Part shown: positions 5,310 through 44,717 of the stretch, in pieces
Position numbering within the stretch: position 1 is the stretch's first letter
Layout of the letters: every line of letters starts with the position of its first letter
Sequence record: PQ850597.1
Reading direction: 5' to 3' (one strand)
DNA from: Escherichia phage ChristineMuster_Bas80
Length of the DNA stretch: 47,021 bases
Translations under genes and position numbers: made by a program
The notes under the pieces: model-generated
What the model saw: only the letters and a program-made list of their open reading frames with translations
What the model was told of the DNA's origin: nothing
Database searches by the model: none

Positions 5310-6243
5310 CGCCAGACTACCCCAGCCGCGCATATCGCAGAGCCTGACCGACCCGTTAGGCGCTGCAGCCCGCCTGTCGAAAATGGACAAGGTGATAACG
5401 CGCAAATACAAACAACTCAGGACTCGTTCGCTTGAGTTGTTTCGCACCATTCCGAGCAGTCAGACCAACGCAGAATCAAGTGGTCTGTATTTCTACGATT
5501 TCAGTAGTGCGCGTGCCGCTACGTTCATGGATGAGTTACAGGAGCTGGTTGACGAGATTCTGCTGGAAGGTGATGATTTCGGTCACGGCAGGATGTGGGC
5601 TAATATGTTCATTGGTGATGCGTATCAGGCCGGGACGCAGAAGGCAAACTCAGAACTATCAAGTCTGTCTCCGGTTTATGCTGAACAGCGACCGATTGCT
5701 GCAATACTCTACAGTGAGCCATATCTGAATCGGCTGCGGCTTGCGTATACAGCTGGTTACTCGGACTGGCGAGGATTGAGTGATTACTCACGCCAACAAC
5801 TGGCATCCGTCATTATGGAAGGCATTGCCCGTGGTGCCAATCCTCGAGATGTTGAGGCTGATATTGTTAAGCGTGTTGACGTGTCACATAGTTACGCGAA
5901 GCAGATAGCGCAGACTGAAATCACCGGAACGCTGCGGCAGGCTAACAGGAGAGAAGTCATTGAGGCTCGCGAGGAATTAGGTATTGAAACGGTGATGCTG
6001 TGGCAATCGGCATTATTGCCTGGTCGAACGAGATTTACTCACGCGGCACGGCACGGGCGGTTTTACGCGCCAGAGGAGATTGACACGTTCTATAGCGAGA
6101 ATGGCAATAGATATAATTGCCACTGTGCACAAGTACCAACATTGATAATGGATGGCAAGCCAGTCATTCTTGAGTCGTCGCAGGAAAGGCTTGATAAGCA
6201 GCGTGAAGCGTGGCAATCAGCCAATAAAAAGCCCTCTAAGTGA
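5284..6243 (+). CDS. Head morphogenesis protein (Mu F / SPP1 gp7-like)
   Basis: ATG at 5284 in frame with track ORF 5080-6243 and overlapping the portal 3' end; C-terminal half has Mu-F-family character (…[20 protein letters not shown]…). Confidence 0.7.
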
Positions 6244-6256
6244 GGGCTTGTTTTTA
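6230..6256. terminator. Rho-independent terminator (bidirectional candidate)
   Basis: agccctc-taagt-gagggct hairpin (6230-6248) followed by tgttttt. Confidence 0.6.
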
Positions 6257-6326
6257 TCTTATCAGCATGCACAGAACAAATACTATTATCGCATAGCACA
6301 ATATCTCTACGACGCTGAATATTGTT

Positions 6327-6935
6327 TTAATCATCAAGTTTCACGCCGGGAATTTTGCCTGCTGCGATGGCTTCATAAATTAGCTTAGCCTCATCCTCGC
6401 GCTTGTAATCTTGCGCTACCATTTCTAATACCGCGCAGATAGATTCAAGTACAGCCTCATGCTTCCTTTCTGCTTCTGTGCGAAATGGGATGAAAACATC
6501 CTTATTGGATGGGGTTATTGCGTAGTAAATCTCACCAGATGGTCTGATAACTATTTTTTCGCCATCAAGACCAATAACCTTGACTTTTCCCCATGACGTT
6601 CCGTTGCTGATATACTCACATTCACACCCAACTGGCGGCAGTCCTTCTCCGTTCCATGCTGAATTTTTCGATGCTGCGAGCGCTGCTTTGTATTGCCAAT
6701 AGGTTACTATCGACTCCTTATGGTCGGAAGATAATGGCGTAGCCCATTCTTCTCCATACCAGAAATGCACAAGGCTATTTCCTGTGTGATGTTTCCATGA
6801 GAACCCCTCATAGTGTGGGTCATTTGTGTCCCATGCGCACAGCGAACCGTCATTATCTTGAGTAATTGACAGCGCGTTTTGAGGCCACCCACCGCGCTTA
6901 GGTAATTCTTGAACCAGTAAATCAATAAGCTTCAT
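6327..6935 (-). CDS. Hypothetical protein (202 aa)
   Basis: ATG at 6935 (MKLIDLL...) preceded by AGGAG; overlaps stop of upstream HNH gene. Confidence 0.5.
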   Translation of the reverse strand: MKLIDLLVQELPKRGGWPQNALSITQDNDGSLCAWDTNDPHYEGFSWKHHTGNSLVHFWYGEEWATPLSSDHKESIVTYWQYKAALAASKNSAWNGEGLPPVGCECEYISNGTSWGKVKVIGLDGEKIVIRPSGEIYYAITPSNKDVFIPFRTEAERKHEAVLESICAVLEMVAQDYKREDEAKLIYEAIAAGKIPGVKLDD

Positions 6936-7407
6936 AATTAAAATCTCCTGCGTATTTAATTCTCGCCTCTTGCGACACAAGCTCTGCCAGCTCAATGTCT
7001 TCGTAGTAGCCCAGATGGATCTGTGTTTTATTTACGCATATCCTTACTCGCCATGAATTTCCGGCAGGATACCAGCTGACTCCCTTCATCCCTGTTTTGT
7101 TTCTGGATGTGATATCCTTGTTGTGCTTATTTTCAGATGAAGTGCATGGCCTTAAGTTGCATAATCTATTGTCATCTCTCACCCTGTTAATATGATCCAC
7201 CTCCTTTGGCATCTCTCCTGTCACGTATAGAAGAGCAAGCCTGTGCGCAAGATAAAGCTTTCCATCAATGCAGATCTGTATGTACCCTTTCCCATTTACC
7301 GACCCAGCCTTTCGACCGCTAAACCCATGTCTTCTTGATTTAATCCACGTGAATTCACCAGATTCAGGGTTATAACTAAGAACACGGAAAAGATCACATT
7401 GTTTCAT
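6922..7407 (-). CDS. HNH endonuclease with AP2-like DNA-binding region
   Basis: Motifs GYIQICIDGKLYLAHRLALLYVTGEMPKEVDHINRVRDDNRLCNLR typical of HNH_3-type homing endonucleases; GGGAGA RBS. Confidence 0.7.
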   Translation of the reverse strand: MKQCDLFRVLSYNPESGEFTWIKSRRHGFSGRKAGSVNGKGYIQICIDGKLYLAHRLALLYVTGEMPKEVDHINRVRDDNRLCNLRPCTSSENKHNKDITSRNKTGMKGVSWYPAGNSWRVRICVNKTQIHLGYYEDIELAELVSQEARIKYAGDFNYEAY

Positions 7408-7700
7408 TTTGTTTCTCCCAATGCTTTATTAACCGCCTCACGCGCATTATCCAGAGCGCGACGCTTGCTTGATGTTGTCCAGACTTTGCCGTCTGCAGAA
7501 TCGTAGCATTCAATCATTTGCTGCGTAGCAATAATCAATTCGGAAATAAGCATGTCGCGATATGCTAACTCAGCAGCAATAGCTGATTTTGAGTGCAATG
7601 ATTCAGAGCTCATGGCGCTAACATGCTGGGAATAAAAGCCACCAATTTCATCAAGGATATCTATATCCCGCTCTGCATACAGATTATTGCTGTCAGTCAT
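7404..7700 (-). CDS. Hypothetical protein (98 aa)
   Basis: ATG at 7700 overlaps upstream stop (ATGA); track start at 7724 also possible. Confidence 0.4.
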   Translation of the reverse strand: MTDSNNLYAERDIDILDEIGGFYSQHVSAMSSESLHSKSAIAAELAYRDMLISELIIATQQMIECYDSADGKVWTTSSKRRALDNAREAVNKALGETK

Positions 7701-7840
7701 TTGATATACTCCATAATCTCGCATTCACGCATCTGCACCAGACTAAATGGTGCAACCACTTTTCCGCACGGACGGATTTTGATTTGCTCAAAATTGAACA
7801 CTTCGCAGCGTCCGTTTTCTTTGAATTTGACCATTACCAT
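7697..7840 (-). CDS. Small hypothetical protein (47 aa)
   Basis: ATG at 7840 with GAGGAA RBS; stop overlaps next start; below the ORF-track length cutoff. Confidence 0.3.
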   Translation of the reverse strand: MVMVKFKENGRCEVFNFEQIKIRPCGKVVAPFSLVQMRECEIMEYIK

Positions 7841-7862
7841 AATTTCTTCCTCACTCATCGTT

Positions 7863-37456: not shown

Positions 37457-37891
37457 GCCAAAATAGGTCAACACTGCAATCTTTATCTGGTCGAGTCCAC
37501 ACGCCACCGCAGAGAATGCACCAGCGCTGGCGCTATCGTTGAGAAACGGTATCTGTCCTGGTTGCCATTTGCTAAGCGTTGAATCATGGCGCTTCAACTC
37601 TATCGTCGCTTTATGCCACTTCACACCAGGCGTCAGGATTATCACATCAGACACCCCTGACCTGACACCTTTCCTTGCGCGCGATGACAGATGCTGCACT
37701 GAGTTGCTTTTAGTCTCCTGAGATGGATGGAACCACAGCACATCAGGAAACCGATAATCCATCCACCACTTAAACGCTATCAAGTCTGAATCCTCATGCG
37801 GACACTCGCCACGGTAACCTTCATCAAAAATTAATACCTTGTCACTCAGCTCATGCTGCTTGAATCGCTTTTTCACTATTCTCTCCTGCAA
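37436..37891 (-). CDS. VRR-NUC domain nuclease (putative)
   Basis: GVSDVIILTPGVKWHKATIELKR matches the D...E.K core pattern of VRR-NUC proteins. Confidence 0.5.
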   Translation of the reverse strand: MQERIVKKRFKQHELSDKVLIFDEGYRGECPHEDSDLIAFKWWMDYRFPDVLWFHPSQETKSNSVQHLSSRARKGVRSGVSDVIILTPGVKWHKATIELKRHDSTLSKWQPGQIPFLNDSASAGAFSAVACGLDQIKIAVLTYFGLPFDVD

Positions 37892-39797
37892 AATCTTTTC
37901 TATGGATTATGTCGCGACCTTTATCATTAATGCGATGAGTGATGCGTTTTGGCGCTTTAATCAATCCAGCATACATCATGAACTGCTTAGCATTCTGGCA
38001 TTTCAGGATTTTCCCCGCCATTGACTTATCATCAAGGTGAGGAAAAATAGCCTTTGCCTTGAACATGTTTTTCATGTGAGTCGCACCGCCATATGGGTAG
38101 AAAACTTCGTTAGCCCAGCCTTCTTTGCCATCACAACGATTAATCCAGTAGCGATACAAAATACCTTCTCCATCCTTTGTTAGCTGGACTTTGAAATCAA
38201 TAACATCAGCCCACTCATTATCGGTATACGCACGCTCATTCAGCGCCGCATTCGGGTCGCGCAACACGTGATCGCAATGTCGGCAATAACGCGCCGTCGG
38301 GTCATTTTTAGTCCCGCAGCCATCATCAAAAATACGGATTCCGTGCTTATCAAAACCGCAACGGATGTAACTGAAAAACTCTTCGCAACGACCATCTGGA
38401 GATAGTGGGTCTTTTCCTATGCAACGGCGCGCATATGGGCTGTTCATTGTTCCGCACTTAGGACACGGAACCTGTTCACCACTGCGTTTTGAACGTTGTG
38501 CTTCAGCCTCTTCCAGAATCGGGTCTTCATACAGTTGACCAAGCTCAAACATCGTTCCTGAGAAATCAAGGACCAGATGGTCTTCTTTATGATACCCGGC
38601 GTCAATTTGCTCTTTCTTCAGCAGGCGCATACCGCGACCAAGCAACTGAACAAGAAGGGTGAGTGACATTATTTTTCGTAATATCACGCTTGTATCCCAA
38701 AGCGGGATATTGACGCCAGTCGTCAAACAACCAATCTGGAAAACATATTTAATCTTGCCAGTGTATGCGTCTTTTAACGCCTTGCGTCTGGCTTTCTGTC
38801 CCATATCCTCGGTGACGATAGCGTAACTTCCTTCGGGTAAATATTTAGATGCCTCCTGACAGTGTTTTTTACCTGCGCATGTAATTAGTACGCCATTTCT
38901 GTTTTTTGTCAGCTCCATAACCTTGAGCATGATTTTCTGCGTGAGTGTCCCTTGCTCAAGTATTTCTTTCTGCATCTGCTTGAGTTGCTCGGCAGTAAAG
39001 TCTTGTGTACCGTCAACATCTGAACCATGGAAGTTATGCAGGTCATATTTCAAATCATCAACATCATGAAGACCAAAGATTGTTGGCACAACAAAACCGC
39101 GATCTACCATGTACTTTGTATCAATGTTTATTATTTCATTTTTCCAGTACGCACCTTTCATTGATTCAGTACCACGGAATGGGCTGCCGGTGAATCCAAT
39201 TGTTATCATTTCATGCCCATATCTTGCCTTGCAGCGCCTATTAAGTTCAGTAAGTATTGCGCCATATTGTGTTGTTGGATTATCACTAATAATATCCTGC
39301 CATGGAGCTTGATGGGACTCATCGATCAGGCAAAATCTTGGGGTAAAATCACTCAATCCACCTTTCTTAACGTCACCGTTTGATTCATCTTTTTTATCAA
39401 AAAGTGCGTTCGCGATTGTTCCTTCAGTACCGCATATAATAGGGTATGCTGTACTTTTCCTGCCAAGAGATGCGCTATAAAGAGAATTTTTTACACCGCA
39501 CTCCCACATCATCTCAGCATTCTGCTCAGCTATCTCCCCCTGTCTTGAAATTACAAGCCCATCCCATCCCATATCCTGAAATCTACTGCAAAGCATTGAA
39601 ATCATCACTGTCTTTCCTGATGAAACCGACGCTGTAACATAGCTTGGCTCAGGTTTCTTTCCAAAATTACGAATAACCTCAGCGCACTTTGCGTAAACAA
39701 GCCATTGGTAATCATATGGCTCTATGGAGCCTAGTTTTATTGATTTCTTTAAGTTACCTATATCAATTTCTGAAATCATCTTGTCTATTTTGTGCAT
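37851..39797 (-). CDS. Superfamily-2 DNA helicase with C-terminal zinc-ribbon
   Basis: Walker A SVSSGKT, DExH box CLIDESHQ, C-terminal CPKCG...CRHC. Confidence 0.8.
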   Translation of the reverse strand: MHKIDKMISEIDIGNLKKSIKLGSIEPYDYQWLVYAKCAEVIRNFGKKPEPSYVTASVSSGKTVMISMLCSRFQDMGWDGLVISRQGEIAEQNAEMMWECGVKNSLYSASLGRKSTAYPIICGTEGTIANALFDKKDESNGDVKKGGLSDFTPRFCLIDESHQAPWQDIISDNPTTQYGAILTELNRRCKARYGHEMITIGFTGSPFRGTESMKGAYWKNEIINIDTKYMVDRGFVVPTIFGLHDVDDLKYDLHNFHGSDVDGTQDFTAEQLKQMQKEILEQGTLTQKIMLKVMELTKNRNGVLITCAGKKHCQEASKYLPEGSYAIVTEDMGQKARRKALKDAYTGKIKYVFQIGCLTTGVNIPLWDTSVILRKIMSLTLLVQLLGRGMRLLKKEQIDAGYHKEDHLVLDFSGTMFELGQLYEDPILEEAEAQRSKRSGEQVPCPKCGTMNSPYARRCIGKDPLSPDGRCEEFFSYIRCGFDKHGIRIFDDGCGTKNDPTARYCRHCDHVLRDPNAALNERAYTDNEWADVIDFKVQLTKDGEGILYRYWINRCDGKEGWANEVFYPYGGATHMKNMFKAKAIFPHLDDKSMAGKILKCQNAKQFMMYAGLIKAPKRITHRINDKGRDIIHRKDFAGENSEKAIQAA

Positions 39798-39805
39798 TTC
39801 ATCAC

Positions 39806-40507
39806 CTATGGCATGTCAGGCCAATAAGAGTTGCTTTTAGATCTGTTTTCACTTGGTGCAAGTAATTGCAAGTTATGCCAGCAGTGAAGGCCGCAAACCA
39901 ATTTACTATTTATTGGCACTATGTGATCAACTTGCATACCAAGAACGCCAGCCATCTCATAAACCTTTTCAATTAAAACCCTTTCATGTTCAAACCATGA
40001 TGGTATCGCCCGTCTTTTAAGATACTTATATTTACGCTGATGATATCTAACAACACCCTTGTTTTTCTGTCTCCACTGTTTTGACTTCTCGTTGTGCTTT
40101 TCCTTGTTTTCATTGTAATACTTCTTTGATTTTGCGTTTATCTTGTTCTTATTTGCTGCGTAATTACCTTTCTTGAACTCTGATTGGCACTTCTTACATT
40201 CAGGCCTAAGACCATCAAGTGATGATTTGTTTTTATTGAAGTTTTCTTCATTTGCATCAAGAACTGAGTTGCATTTAGAGCATACTTTCCTTCCATCAAC
40301 AAGATATCTCAGCCTTTTACCTTTGTTTCCATCGCATGATTTACAATGAGATTTTAAACCAAGCCTCATCTTCTTATCTGAGTAGAAGTAATCACTTGTT
40401 GCAGGAAGCATTAAATTGCATCTTGAGCATTTCTTTTTTGTCCCTGTGCTTGCGCAACCTGCACTTTCCTGAGCAACATTTTGCTTTTGCAGTTCCGATA
40501 AACTCAT
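39806..40507 (-). CDS. HNH homing-endonuclease-like protein with CxxC repeats
   Basis: C-terminal VDHIVPINSK...CWHNLQLL...ENRSKSN core, preceded by CSRC...CKSC and CSKC...CKKC pairs; start at 40507 has a GAGG RBS; track start 40579 also possible. Confidence 0.55.
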   Translation of the reverse strand: MSLSELQKQNVAQESAGCASTGTKKKCSRCNLMLPATSDYFYSDKKMRLGLKSHCKSCDGNKGKRLRYLVDGRKVCSKCNSVLDANEENFNKNKSSLDGLRPECKKCQSEFKKGNYAANKNKINAKSKKYYNENKEKHNEKSKQWRQKNKGVVRYHQRKYKYLKRRAIPSWFEHERVLIEKVYEMAGVLGMQVDHIVPINSKLVCGLHCWHNLQLLAPSENRSKSNSYWPDMP

Positions 40508-40544
40508 TTCCGCAAACCTCGCACTTCTTAACGGTGATAGCCAT
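40392..40544 (-). CDS. Small Zn-ribbon ORF in alternate frame overlapping the HNH gene 5' region
   Basis: ATG at 40544 with AGAGGA RBS; product has CEVCG...CCSGKC; frames meet at an A6 run. Confidence 0.35.
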   Translation of the reverse strand: MAITVKKCEVCGNEFIGTAKAKCCSGKCRLRKHRDKKEMLKMQFNASCNK

Positions 40545-40651
40545 TTCTTGTCCTCTATTGTAACGATTAATTGTTTCATTTCAAGTAACGATTGATTGTT
40601 TCATGTGAGTAAATTACAATGATTCTACATCATCGTCAACAGGAAGATTTT

Positions 40652-41605
40652 ATGAGATACGACTGGAAAGATATTGAGCCAAAAATGCTTGGCAATTGGC
40701 AAGCTGCCATCATGTCTATCGTCAATGTGGATAGCAGAGTTTTCAATGGCAAGCACCAGCCATGCCCGTCATGCTCAGGAAAAGACAGGTATCGCTTTGA
40801 TGACAACTTCGAAACAAAAGGCGATGGCGGCGCAATCTGCAATCAGTGCGGTTCCGGCAGCGGCATGAATTGGCTGATGAAACTCTCCGGAATGAGCTTT
40901 CCTGAAGCGCTGGAGGCACTTGGTGGATTCCTGAATATGCACCCGCGTGAAAAGCTGGAGGCAATCAGGAAGGAGTTACCGAAGATAAATTACAACGATG
41001 ACTTCGTCACAGAGCAGGAAGTCGCCGCAATCATGGCTAAAACGACGCGTGTCGCGATGAATGAGTGGACTTTGATAAATGGTATTGGTTGCGACGTTAA
41101 CGTCACCAGAGGCAAATCTGGAGAACTTATTGCGGTTGAGATGATGCGAGCTGACACAATGAAACTGTGCAACGTGGCATTCATTGGCATGGATGGTGAT
41201 TCAATCAGAACGTTTTTCCGCGCAGGATACAACAAGGACTCAGCCATCAACGGCAAACTCACGCGCGGCGCGATAAGCCCAATCGGAGAAGACAACGGGA
41301 AGTTCATTTACCTGGTATCTGATTATGCCGATGCGTGGAAGTGCCATTACTTCACTGGCGCGCATGTCTGGTGCTGCTGGTCGCCGGAAAACATGTGGGA
41401 AGTGGTGCGCTCTGTTAGCAATGAGATGAAGTCACGGTTACGCTGCATAGTTAATTATAAATTTGACGAACTTTGCGCTGCGGAAAACGCAGGGATTCCG
41501 GTGATGCTTCCTGATGATGCCGACACTATCAGGATGGCAAAGAGAATCAGGAGAAAGATTTATGACGCTGGCGAGTTGATAGAAAAAATGTCAGTCAACA
41601 GATAA
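40652..41605 (+). CDS. DNA primase-like protein with N-terminal zinc-binding domain
   Basis: CPSCSGKDRYRFDD...GGAICNQCGSG pattern typical of phage/plasmid primase zinc-binding domains; AGGAAG RBS. Confidence 0.55.
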   Translation: MRYDWKDIEPKMLGNWQAAIMSIVNVDSRVFNGKHQPCPSCSGKDRYRFDDNFETKGDGGAICNQCGSGSGMNWLMKLSGMSFPEALEALGGFLNMHPREKLEAIRKELPKINYNDDFVTEQEVAAIMAKTTRVAMNEWTLINGIGCDVNVTRGKSGELIAVEMMRADTMKLCNVAFIGMDGDSIRTFFRAGYNKDSAINGKLTRGAISPIGEDNGKFIYLVSDYADAWKCHYFTGAHVWCCWSPENMWEVVRSVSNEMKSRLRCIVNYKFDELCAAENAGIPVMLPDDADTIRMAKRIRRKIYDAGELIEKMSVNR

Positions 41606-41609
41606 AAGA

Positions 41610-41636
41610 AACCCTCCATATGGAGGGTTTTTTGTT
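41610..41636. terminator. Rho-independent terminator (bidirectional candidate)
   Basis: aaccctcca-ta-tggagggtt hairpin followed by TTTTGTT. Confidence 0.65.
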
Positions 41637-42051
41637 ATTTCTTGAACTCTGGTGCTTCAGTCCAGAAGGCTACATTTCGCAGAGACTTACTCGTGTGATT
41701 GCACCAGTATATTCCTGAGTCATCATACTTGGCAGTAACCTTGACGCGATCAGTATCAATAATAACAACCTCCTGCCCATCTTTAGGGTCGAAAAGACGC
41801 GCATCCTTCCAGTTAGCAATCTCATTAAGGGAAAGAAGAACATAGCCTGGAAGATAAGCGCCGACATCAGCAATGTGAACTATTGTTCGCTCCGTTCTCT
41901 CTCCTGTGTAGTCGCCATTCCACTCATAAAGAATAACCGTGTCTCCAACCTTAAAATCACGATCGTTCTTCCTTAGTTCCGCCTTCTTGTGTCCGGTAAC
42001 AACAGGCCAGAAGTGCTCAGGTAAGATTTTTAGTTCGTGTGTTTTGCTCAT
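41635..42051 (-). CDS. ASCH-like / DUF3850-like protein
   Basis: N-terminal HELKILPEHFWPVVTGHKKAELRKNDRDFKVGD pattern recalled for DUF3850. Confidence 0.5.
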   Translation of the reverse strand: MSKTHELKILPEHFWPVVTGHKKAELRKNDRDFKVGDTVILYEWNGDYTGERTERTIVHIADVGAYLPGYVLLSLNEIANWKDARLFDPKDGQEVVIIDTDRVKVTAKYDDSGIYWCNHTSKSLRNVAFWTEAPEFKK

Positions 42052-43643
42052 TTCAACCCCCTCATAAATCTCATGCGCTTAACAGCAGCAGAAAGATAAT
42101 TTCTAACCGTTGAGTTCATTCGCAGTCCATCCCATGAACCATCGCTGCACATCTTAATCGCTCTTGGGTTATCTCTGTCCAGCATTAGTGGTGAATGCTT
42201 ATTCTCCTCAATCGCAAGAAGAACCTCATAAACAAATTTATCAGGTGTTAGTGTGATGTTATTAGAGTCAGCAGAATTAATTATCTTTTTAATTCTATCA
42301 CGACACAGCTTGTTCTTTATAACAGACAAGTAAGGCGTTTTAATGAATGCCTGTGACTCACAAATTCGCTTAATTTTTTCTACAATGTTCTCCCATTCAG
42401 TATTTTCAAGTCCATCAAACTCCTGTTCGCCCTCAAGGAATCTTTGCAGACCAGCGAGATGCTCAAGAACCACGATATATCCCCATTCGACATGCTCCAT
42501 CGTAACTGCTGGCGTCATTCCACGGCGACTTGACAGATCTGCGTAAGCCGCAAGAGTTGCAAGGTCTACAATCATCAGCCCCATGCGCGGGATAACGTCA
42601 CCAACAACACCATCGCGATCTCCAAGCTCACTTTCCAGTTTCATAGACAGAGATCTGTGCAGCTTTTTCACTTCATCATCAGCCCATACAGCGTTAGTTT
42701 TCGCGGTAAGAATCCTACCTTTCCACTCATTGATTATTTTTCTTGAAATTGTGCCGCTAACTTCCACATCCTTCATCGCTGGCATTTCCTCACCAGCAAG
42801 ATGTCCAAGCTGGAACAGCACTCGCCCCATACCGCCATCTTTCTGCCATGAACGCGCAGCATCTATTCCCTGCTCTGGAGTGACAGTAATCAGCGGAACA
42901 AATTTTGCGTTTTCAATTCCACCGTCTTTTGTTGCAATTTCGTATTCATTCATTGCCGACTTGAGCGCGCGACCAACGCTGTGGTCCATCATCGCAAGGC
43001 GCTTATAATCTATGACGCCTTTACCATCATCACCACCAGTGAGTGGAACTATCCATCCCTCAGCGCTTGCTGCCGCCATAATGCGTTTTTGGTTTTGTTC
43101 CCAAGTAAGGTTTTCAAGCAACTCCTTTATTATTGGCCTGTTAGGAACCCACACTCCGCCGTCAGTAAGACCTCTATACCACGCCATAGTGCCGCCAAGA
43201 TATGCATTACGCGGGTTGTTCCAGTCTTCAAGATGTTGCTTATCATCGTTCACAACGTAGAGCAAAGACCCACCTCCAGCAATAAGGTCTAACTGCATCT
43301 GTTTTGTCGAGGTTGATTTAGATGCGCAAACTCTGGACCCTATTCCCAGCGCGTTGGCATATGCCCTGACGAAACTCACCGGCGCACCCTTACCTGCACC
43401 AGAGCGAGCTACCAGAAATATGCCGGTATTGCAGATACTACCTGTTGGACCAATCAAATATCGGCCAGCCATCGCCTGAGTAAGGCCCAATGCACCAGTT
43501 AAACGATACCTCTCACCATCATTACGGCGCTCAAAGTTTTTCGCAATCTCATCCATAAACTCACCAAGTGCACCAGGAGCATCCCTATTCATACCCATAG
43601 CCATGGACTCAAAATCAATAGCGCCCATCAATATACCCTCCAT
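42048..43643 (-). CDS. Hypothetical protein (531 aa), possible P-loop NTPase
   Basis: Long ORF in replication block; Walker-A-like ARSGAGKG and hydrophobic-DD segment LLYVVNDD; function unknown. Confidence 0.45.
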   Translation of the reverse strand: MEGILMGAIDFESMAMGMNRDAPGALGEFMDEIAKNFERRNDGERYRLTGALGLTQAMAGRYLIGPTGSICNTGIFLVARSGAGKGAPVSFVRAYANALGIGSRVCASKSTSTKQMQLDLIAGGGSLLYVVNDDKQHLEDWNNPRNAYLGGTMAWYRGLTDGGVWVPNRPIIKELLENLTWEQNQKRIMAAASAEGWIVPLTGGDDGKGVIDYKRLAMMDHSVGRALKSAMNEYEIATKDGGIENAKFVPLITVTPEQGIDAARSWQKDGGMGRVLFQLGHLAGEEMPAMKDVEVSGTISRKIINEWKGRILTAKTNAVWADDEVKKLHRSLSMKLESELGDRDGVVGDVIPRMGLMIVDLATLAAYADLSSRRGMTPAVTMEHVEWGYIVVLEHLAGLQRFLEGEQEFDGLENTEWENIVEKIKRICESQAFIKTPYLSVIKNKLCRDRIKKIINSADSNNITLTPDKFVYEVLLAIEENKHSPLMLDRDNPRAIKMCSDGSWDGLRMNSTVRNYLSAAVKRMRFMRGLK

Positions 43644-43918
43644 ACTCGCAAGAATTTGCCAGGGATAATACCTTGTTTCACAGTTACCACCGCACCAGCC
43701 CTGTCAGCCTCAATTTTTATCGCCTTCTGAAGTGACGTCATTGTCATCTGAAAACCTCGCTCTATATCGTATGCGTAGCACCCATCTCTTCCACCAATCA
43801 AAATTGAAGTTGAATACCCGTTCTCAAAGTAAAACTGACACCCATCAGGAGCTGTAAGATTATTTATCACGTCGTGAGCAAGAGATGTCGTGACAGGGAA
43901 TATCTGAGCGCAACTCAT
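43628..43918 (-). CDS. Hypothetical protein (96 aa)
   Basis: ATG at 43918 with GGAGGT RBS. Confidence 0.4.
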   Translation of the reverse strand: MSCAQIFPVTTSLAHDVINNLTAPDGCQFYFENGYSTSILIGGRDGCYAYDIERGFQMTMTSLQKAIKIEADRAGAVVTVKQGIIPGKFLRVWRVY

Positions 43919-43920
43919 AC

Positions 43921-44160
43921 CTACCTCCACCCCATGTGTAACAATAAAATTTCGTCTTTATCAACATTCACCAACACCTTGATACCCATATCCCTTGAAA
44001 CAATACTGACATTTGTTCGAAAACTCGGTAACCCCATCGCGCGCGCACGTTCCCAATCTTCACCACAAACAAACCACCCATCATGCGTTCTCCTCAGGCG
44101 CTTAAGTAACCCGTACACCCACTCAAGATTTGACCCTTTACGGTAATTTAGTTCTTTCAT
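43921..44160 (-). CDS. Hypothetical protein (79 aa)
   Basis: ATG at 44160 with GGAGGTAAGT RBS; first gene after the iteron region on the minus strand. Confidence 0.4.
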   Translation of the reverse strand: MKELNYRKGSNLEWVYGLLKRLRRTHDGWFVCGEDWERARAMGLPSFRTNVSIVSRDMGIKVLVNVDKDEILLLHMGWR

Positions 44161-44260
44161 ACTTACCTCCATCTCCAGTGACTCTAATTTTATATAAATA
44201 AAAAAGATATGCAATTCTAATATGTGCTGGCTGTACAGTTTGGCTAATTTTTGCTCGATT

Positions 44261-44618
44261 TATACCGTCTTTACCTGGTTTTTACCGTGCTATTTTTGAT
44301 GCAACTAATTGATTAATAAGATTTTACCGGTTTTACCGGATTTCTTAAGTGGTATTTTAATTATTAAGATTGGCAGTGTATTAATTTGATCTAATTTTAA
44401 TAAACTTAAATAAAATCAATATATTAATATGAATGAATAACTTACTTACCTCTATAGAATTTACCGGGTAAAACCGGTAACTCCTCCGCAAGCCGCGCCA
44501 TTGCTGGCTTCATTTTTACCACCTGTAGGTAAATACAGTAGTTTTTAAGTGATAATTGTTTTGGTAAGCTGTTGATTACCGGTGCTTTATTTAAAAAACC
44601 GGCATTTACCGGTATTTT
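44261..44618. repeat. Iteron array: at least 10 copies of TTTACCGG-like 8-9-mers flanking an AT-rich core
   Basis: Copies at about 44263, 44271, 44281, 44323, 44332, 44461, 44471 (inverted), 44514, 44576, 44597 (inverted) and 44605; AT-rich stretch 44341-44460. Confidence 0.6.
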
Positions 44619-44688
44619 GTGGAGTGATTAATAAGTGCGCAATTAGTCCTTGTTTACCAGAATCAACAAGTGCGAAACCTAAATAATG

Positions 44689-44717
44689 TTGACGTAGAAA
44701 CATCATTGATGTAGATT
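44689..44717 (+). promoter_or_regulatory. Sigma70-like promoter TTGACG-17-TAGATT driving the early plus-strand genes
   Basis: TTGACG at 44689-44694, 17-nt spacer, TAGATT at 44712-44717; two tandem TTGAYGTAGA half-sites 17 bp apart. Confidence 0.55.

Follow-up and report, generated by a model that had tools for sequence, protein, structure and literature searches.

The 47,021-nucleotide sequence from Escherichia phage ChristineMuster_Bas80 (PQ850597.1), referred to in its full length as the window, carries on its minus strand a gene (42048-43628) that probably encodes the replicative helicase of the phage. Sequence comparisons and a predicted structure point to an AAA+ protein of superfamily 6 (SF6; MCM-like) that forms a remote, unannotated branch of the DUF3987 helicases, and the gene sits where sister phages have a canonical DUF3987 helicase. 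The window is a siphovirus genome, and its DNA is 99.9% identical over this stretch to Escherichia phage ClaudiaMuster_Bas77, a member of the Skatevirus cluster in the BASEL collection (PMC11990801). The Bas77 counterpart of the gene is named "hypothetical protein" and annotated as starting at the second ATG.

A preliminary description of this DNA had reported an open reading frame (ORF) at 42048-43643, a Walker-A-like ARSGAGKG and a LLYVVNDD segment within it, two small ORFs with GGAGGT ribosome-binding sites beside it, and a neighbouring array of iterons; all of these were borne out as detailed below, and both motifs translate as described. The ORF is a genuine maximal ORF of 531 amino acids, with a corrected start: the true start is probably the second ATG at 43628, giving 526 residues, because it is preceded by GGAGGG 7 nucleotides upstream, overlaps the stop codon of the upstream gene (TGATG) and is the start annotated in Bas77. 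Residue numbers below follow the 531-residue ORF.

42048-43628, minus strand: probable helicase gene, 526 amino acids (maximal ORF to 43643), a divergent DUF3987/SF6 (MCM-like AAA+) member

Distant relationship to DUF3987 helicases

Direct searches with the helicase protein were largely empty. Matches to PDB sequences by phmmer were noise (E >= 0.56), a PADLOC scan returned nothing, the 27-bit gathering score of Pfam DUF3987 (PF13148) was not reached, and the closest relatives (proteins P0012-P0019) likewise had no Pfam match at E <= 0.1. The single direct lead was PHROG 3022 ('DNA primase'), positions 356-712 of 788 of which align with helicase residues 20-429 at E 2.6e-14; the matched part lies outside the primase portion, in the C-terminal half of a primase-helicase family.

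Intermediate sequences provided the connection. The window protein and the five relatives closest to it were combined in a profile for an exhaustive hidden Markov model search of 1.84 billion representative proteins, which found 48 proteins at E <= 1e-3 and only 10 at E <= 1e-30; the clade is therefore rare. Among the matches are P0022 (E 3.6e-8) and P0025 (E 1.1e-7), which themselves match DUF3987 at 40.5 and 35.3 bits, respectively. Of the 43 relatives in the alignment, 20 match DUF3987; a fusion to Prim-Pol is present in seven homologues, and others carry PriCT_2, RepB-primase or NrS-1 polymerase domains. Profile-profile alignment (hhalign) of the window clade (13 sequences) with the distant set (33 sequences) gave a probability of 100% and an E value of 1e-42 over 426 columns. 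A word-indexed homologue search gained almost nothing beyond the close clade, even with a wide alignment. These comparisons indicate that the protein is homologous to DUF3987-type helicases and primase-helicase fusions, its membership of the superfamily being established via intermediate sequences and not via the Pfam model itself.

DUF3987 proteins have been described as SF6 members and distant kin of MCM, with a winged helix-turn-helix at the C-terminal end and an association with primases, and were predicted to be replicative (PMC4889955). One of them, AgaPH, has demonstrated ATP-dependent 5'-3' helicase activity, its mutants in Walker A and in Walker B being inactive, and is so far the sole direct evidence of helicase activity in the superfamily (PMC11724360).

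ATP-site motifs and predicted fold

Five motifs of the ATP site and two C-terminal elements were located in the protein:

43386-43409, minus strand: Walker A (P-loop) A79-RSGAGK85-G86 in translation; family pattern [ST][GA]xGK[DEGQSN]
43242-43265, minus strand: Walker B L127-LYVV-N132-D133-D134; aligns with hhhhDE of the wider family
42876-42887, minus strand: sensor-1 region T253-V-T-P256; family S-T-P, at the end of strand beta4
42822-42836, minus strand: arginine-finger motif G270-G-M-G-R274; family G-h-h-x-R, just before strand beta5, like SRFD in MCM
42585-42587, minus strand: sensor-2 arginine R353, in lid helix 346-368
42144-42338, minus strand: predicted winged-helix-like domain, residues 436-500, from DSSP of the model; candidate iteron reader
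42054-42113, minus strand: basic C-terminal helix, residues 511-530 (VRNYLSAAVKRMRFMRGL), from the alignment, the model and per-domain identities

Conservation was read from an alignment of 43 sequences, in which the homologues share 14-52% identity with the window protein. Four residues (G84, G270, R274 and R353) never vary, and K85 and D133, the acidic Walker B residue in the place of the catalytic Glu, are almost invariant. Walker A, Walker B, sensor 1, arginine finger and sensor 2 run in the canonical AAA+ order.

The AlphaFold2 model built from the same alignment has a mean predicted local distance difference test (pLDDT) score of 92 and a predicted template modelling (TM) score of 0.85; it superseded a model from a six-sequence alignment with a pLDDT of 48. 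In the model, the P-loop lies between strand 74-78 and helix 86-98 (beta1-loop-alpha1), Walker B lies at the end of strand 126-132 (beta3), sensor 1 is carried by strand 247-254, R274 directly precedes strand 275-279 in the manner of the SRFD arginine finger of MCM, and R353 is in the helical lid. Because G84/K85 and D133 are conserved across the 43 homologues and are placed at beta1-loop-alpha1 and the end of beta3, alignment and model agree that ARSGAGKG and LLYVVNDD are motifs beyond chance. An insertion of about 105 residues, mostly helical, separates Walker B from sensor 1, and the model places a short hairpin at around residues 201-212. In MCM proteins, the presensor-1 beta-hairpin and the helix-2 insert contact DNA. 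Residues 439-498 form three helices followed by two strands with pLDDT above 90, resembling a winged helix, and the C-terminal helix VRNYLSAAVKRMRFMRGL keeps 74-77% identity even where two clades share about 50% over the whole protein.

The predicted fold is an MCM-like AAA+ fold that has MCM as its nearest neighbour and displays the five motifs in order. A Foldseek comparison with the PDB likewise ranked MCM first. The protein has no Pfam match to the MCM family proper (PF00493). Matches among the viral models of BFVD were DUF3987 proteins, primase-helicase fusions and a 'Replicative DNA helicase' of Salmonella phage LPSTLL (TM score 0.74, 18% identity). The closest match in fold and sequence was not to the AAA+ initiator/loader clade (DnaA, DnaC, Orc1/Cdc6), and the core was not of the RecA-type SF4 DnaB-like or SF3 D5/P4-alpha-like kind; identities as a DnaB-like helicase loader, an ORC/DnaA-type initiator or a defence NTPase were rejected in membership tests.

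The leftward operon and exchange of the helicase cassette

The helicase gene is the third in a tightly packed leftward operon, in which the 79-residue ORF, the 96-residue ORF, the helicase gene and an ASCH/DUF3850 gene are followed by a hairpin, with a primase gene converging from the other side:

43921-44160, minus strand: 79-residue ORF that heads the leftward operon; GGAGGT ribosome-binding site
43628-43918, minus strand: 96-residue orphan partner, with a GGAGGT ribosome-binding site; stop codon overlaps the helicase start (TGATG)
41635-42051, minus strand: ASCH/DUF3850 gene, last in the operon, with an ATG that overlaps the stop codon of the helicase gene (ATGA)
41606-41633, no strand assigned: bidirectional terminator-like hairpin, closing the leftward operon and the convergent primase gene
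40619-41605, plus strand: primase, a separate gene of 328 amino acids (Pfam Zn_Ribbon_Prim, E 4e-12; PHROG 510 'DNA primase', E 1e-81)

A terminator is annotated in ASO78B at the position matching the window hairpin. Stop and start codons overlap at 43626-43630 (96-residue gene and helicase) and at 42048-42051 (helicase and ASCH gene), which suggests that these three genes are translationally coupled. The primase gene lies two genes from the helicase and is conserved beside helicase homologues, so that the protein has the primase association of the DUF3987 superfamily, in which a primase of the AEP or DnaG type is fused or adjacent.

The same genomic slot is occupied differently in sister phages. 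In Shigella phage DS8 and Salmonella phage Vi II-E1, the ASCH gene and primase-end flanks are 91-95% identical to the window DNA, yet the slot between the ASCH and primase genes holds a 517-residue protein annotated 'DNA helicase' that matches Pfam DUF3987 (E 1e-34, 116-120 bits) and has no similarity to the window protein by BLASTP. These near-identical flanks around dissimilar helicases show that the helicase cassette has been exchanged at the same position. The DS8/Vi II-E1 cassette includes a weakly AP2-like upstream protein of 90 residues. The exchanged segments correspond to 42048-44700 of the window, 5534-7840 of locus L003 (DS8) and 5676-7860 of locus L004 (Vi II-E1).

Iterons, the small upstream gene and a candidate origin

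Upstream of the operon lies a repeat-rich region that is probably the replication origin:

44261-44660, no strand assigned: candidate replication origin and divergent-promoter region, with about 12 GGTAA-core iterons (CCGGTAAA type) in both orientations

The iterons flank a 100-bp AT-rich core (44350-44449) with a G+C content of 14-20%, compared with 46.5% overall. At one mismatch, CCGGTAAA has 52 matches in the 47-kb window, where 22.8 +/- 4.9 are expected by chance, and 10 of them fall within 44270-44660, as do four of the five exact matches. The origin assignment is made because iterons on both sides of an AT-rich core, beside a helicase operon, are classical origin anatomy. A promoter scan of the region performed no better than chance (9 found, 7.5 expected). 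Two short genes annotated in Bas77, Bas77_0082 (about 44381-44491, 36 amino acids) and Bas77_0083 (44587-44703, 38 amino acids), fall inside the iteron and AT-rich region and are probably over-calls, not genes.

The arrangement was compared across 16 loci: the window, ASO78B, metagenomic contigs with helicases 28-94% identical to that of the window, and ten IMG/VR contigs. In 16 of 16 loci, the end of a small ORF reaches or overlaps the start of the helicase gene, and the called or aligned proteins have 67-96 residues. They make up a single, weakly conserved orphan family with the C-terminal end h-x-h-W/Y-R/K-V, represented by 23 clusters among 5.8 billion proteins and without a Pfam domain or a significant PDB match; the 96-residue protein of the window gave no match in Pfam, PHROG, PDB or PADLOC. 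Repeats, measured in the 750 bp upstream of the small gene, are enriched in all 16 loci and vary in sequence by clade; loci that use the GGTAA core have 15-23 copies per kb there, compared with about 2-3 per kb elsewhere. The repeat types are as follows:

CCGGTAAA: the window, ASO78B and L015
CCGGTAACT: the P0004/P0005 clade
CGGGAACTC: the P0002/P0003 clade
CAGGTAAAT plus CCGGATCA: L013
TTGGTAAA: L012
TGCCCCACG, unrelated palindromic repeats: DS8 and Vi II-E1, with the canonical DUF3987 cassette

Domain comparisons bear on which protein reads the iterons. The AAA+ core of the window protein is 66-68% identical to the CGGGAACTC clade and 53-57% to the CCGGTAACT clade, whereas the winged-helix domain has the opposite order, being 45% identical to that of L016 (CGGGAACTC clade) and 63% to that of L005 (CCGGTAACT clade); the small protein is 23% and 27% identical to those of the two clades, respectively. 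The winged-helix domain and the small protein thus both track iteron similarity in three well-sampled clades. The helicase protein may bind the origin through its C-terminal winged-helix-like domain, and this domain and the small partner protein are equally good candidates for the iteron reader.

In the proposed mechanism, the helicase protein would form a hexameric ring at the origin, to which its own winged-helix domain, the co-translated 96-residue partner or both would direct it. The ring would melt or encircle DNA at the AT-rich core and then use ATP to unwind the fork, on which the separate DnaG-type primase would make primers. Synthesis would be carried out by a host polymerase, as proposed because no DNA polymerase gene is annotated in the near-identical Bas77. 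MCMs translocate 3'-5', as opposed to the 5'-3' direction of AgaPH.

A more ambitious interpretation is speculative: the clade-specific iterons, the orphan of 67-96 residues and the MCM-like helicase might constitute a self-contained origin-licensing module of a bacterial virus, in which the orphan would be a new origin-recognition or helicase-loading factor and the GKG and N-D-D motifs would belong to a loader-gated ATPase.

Alternative functions

Several observations weigh against a replicative helicase. The protein has no Pfam or NCBIfam match at E <= 0.1; apart from the negative BLASTP comparison with the syntenic DS8 protein, hhalign against a two-sequence DS8/Vi II-E1 template, which is too thin, gave non-significant probabilities of 0.4% and 2%. 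Membership of the superfamily is based on intermediate sequences and fold, with no curated family threshold reached directly, and the helicase assignment in this clade comes from sequence and predicted structure. Walker A has Gly (G86) after its lysine and not the usual Ser/Thr, which normally coordinates Mg2+, and the Walker B Asp is Asn (N132) in the window subclade, compared with D-D in the other members of the clade and D-E in the wider family. Because both motifs deviate, ATPase activity could be weak or differently organised. The N-terminal OB/zinc domain of MCM is absent, about 70 helical residues preceding the P-loop strand in the model. The iteron region is also the divergence point of two operons, so that its repeats could serve as operators and not as an origin. 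Finally, a second helicase of the replication block could in principle act at the fork instead:

37851-39797: SF2 helicase, 648 amino acids

The main rival, which is unlikely, holds that the protein is an AAA+ initiator or helicase loader that would bind the CCGGTAAA iterons via its winged helix, melt the AT-rich core and hand the DNA to the SF2 helicase or host DnaB. It accords with the presence of that second helicase gene, with a gene that directly adjoins the iterons and an iteron type that changes with the module, with the predicted winged-helix-like C-terminal domain, whose similarity follows that of the iterons while the AAA+ core does the opposite, and with non-canonical Walker motifs that would suit a switch-type ATPase. 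However, homologues are fused to primases where helicase domains usually sit, and helicase activity has been demonstrated for a DUF3987 protein (PMC11724360). The two roles, moreover, are not exclusive, as self-loading helicases such as SF3 Rep proteins illustrate.

The preliminary description, which recognised no family, had suggested an origin-binding initiator, a helicase loader or an unrelated NTPase in the replication block, to be given up if clear homology to a non-replicative family and no iteron binding emerged. Its lack of a recognisable family holds for direct searches but not for the remote relationship to the DUF3987/SF6 MCM-like superfamily, and the homology found is to helicases of that superfamily. 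A P-loop NTPase linked to iterons is upheld, as part of a module present in 16 loci, but the protein is most probably the helicase itself.

Less likely still is a catalytically degenerate AAA+ protein that would not hydrolyse ATP but act as a scaffold, structural or regulatory, for the replisome or the origin complex. The lack of the Mg2+-coordinating Ser/Thr, at a position that can be G, Q, S or N in the clade, and the Asn in Walker B of the window subclade are what such a protein might be expected to show. In opposition to this, K85, D133, R274 and R353 are invariant or nearly so in 43 very divergent sequences, which points to selection for an active ATP site between subunits; D or E often follows the lysine in the wider family, which still includes primase fusions, and D134 could compensate for N132. 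Least probable of all is a non-replicative AAA+ protein of the same structural clade, for example a chaperone resembling MoxR/RavA, a recombination helicase that drives branch migration as ComM does, or a factor in anti-defence or host takeover. Recombination genes in the block speak for it (exonuclease VIII in Bas77 and, downstream of that gene in related loci, an ERF recombinase). Against it, MCM matches have the higher scores and take the first 13 places, Prim-Pol or PriCT primase domains are fused to relatives, the syntenic gene of sister phages is a DUF3987 helicase, and PADLOC returned nothing; the close association with iterons and an AT-rich core also suits a replicative role.

Other genes of the replication region

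The primase is classed as DnaG-type from its primase-helicase zinc ribbon and is the presumed partner of the helicase. It matches just the N-terminal half of PHROG 510 (positions 4-348 of 667); because its 328 residues cover that half alone, the other members of PHROG 510 are presumably primase-helicase fusions. In the window, the helicase has its own gene, on the strand opposite to the primase.

The replication and recombination set of Bas77 comprises a single-stranded DNA-binding protein (SSB), exonuclease VIII, the SF2 helicase, the primase, the MCM-like helicase, RusA and a ParB-like protein; the ERF recombinase was seen in related loci only (L005 and L008). Between the SF2 helicase and the primase is a gene that is variable in size or absent among relatives:

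39806-40579, minus strand: HNH/endonuclease VII-like gene

Its counterpart encodes 173 residues in ASO78B and 334 in DS8, and is absent from L005, L009 and L010, variability that is typical of a mobile homing endonuclease.

The 79-residue ORF at the head of the operon is restricted to the subclade of the window and ASO78B, and is considered to be outside the module core because it is missing from most loci that keep iterons. Its only matches are below threshold, to the P7 RNA-polymerase inhibitor of Xanthomonas phage Xp10 (Pfam E 0.042; PDB 2mc5, E 0.41); the product might be an early transcription regulator.

Comparison with known systems and implications

Known DUF3987 (PF13148) helicases of phages and mobile elements include DS8 gp30, its Vi II-E1 equivalent VIP0048, N4 dns and AgaPH (PMC4889955, PMC11724360). 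The window protein shares with them the AAA+ motif order, including G-h-h-x-R and the sensor-2 Arg, the predicted C-terminal winged-helix-like domain, the association with a separate or fused primase, the genomic slot, the small upstream gene and the upstream repeats. It differs in scoring below curated thresholds, in having GKG instead of GKT/S and N-D-D instead of D-E, and in the mostly helical insertion between Walker B and sensor 1. Compared with the DS8/Vi II-E1 cassette, its partner is an orphan and not AP2-like, and its iterons are CCGGTAAA and not TGCCCCACG.

With MCM-type proteins, namely archaeal and eukaryotic MCM and the MCM-like helicases of bacterial mobile elements, such as the Bacillus cereus prophage protein BcMCM (PMC2715239) and SCCmec Cch (PDB 5dgk), it shares the arginine finger directly before beta5, a C-terminal winged helix (predicted here) and an expected hexameric ring, whereas it is without the N-terminal OB-fold/zinc domain and is only 9-15% identical in sequence. 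A functional analogy may be drawn with the self-loading initiator-helicases of plasmids and satellites (P4 alpha, SaPI Rep/DUF927 and SF3 proteins), in which a ring helicase beside its own iteron origin has a C-terminal DNA-binding domain and works with a primase and host polymerase. Unlike in those systems, the window primase is a separate DnaG-type gene, and a conserved small partner gene precedes the helicase.

The protein is therefore best regarded as a very divergent member of the known DUF3987/SF6 phage helicases, with an orphan partner and clade-specific iterons, and not as a new kind of system; fold, family and role were all predicted for DUF3987 proteins already in 2016. A probable function can now be assigned to a gene annotated as "hypothetical" in Bas77, ASO78B and related phages of the Skatevirus cluster. 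A replication cassette of origin repeats, small protein and SF6 helicase is swapped as a unit between otherwise near-identical phages. The window also offers a compact candidate set of origin and initiator in a phage of the BASEL collection, and because this phage can be grown on E. coli K-12, the loading of MCM-like helicases in bacteria should be easy to test. If the licensing module were real, the iteron variants CCGGTAAA, CCGGTAACT, CGGGAACTC and TTGGTAAA would be a ready-made specificity code for MCM-like helicase loading in E. coli.

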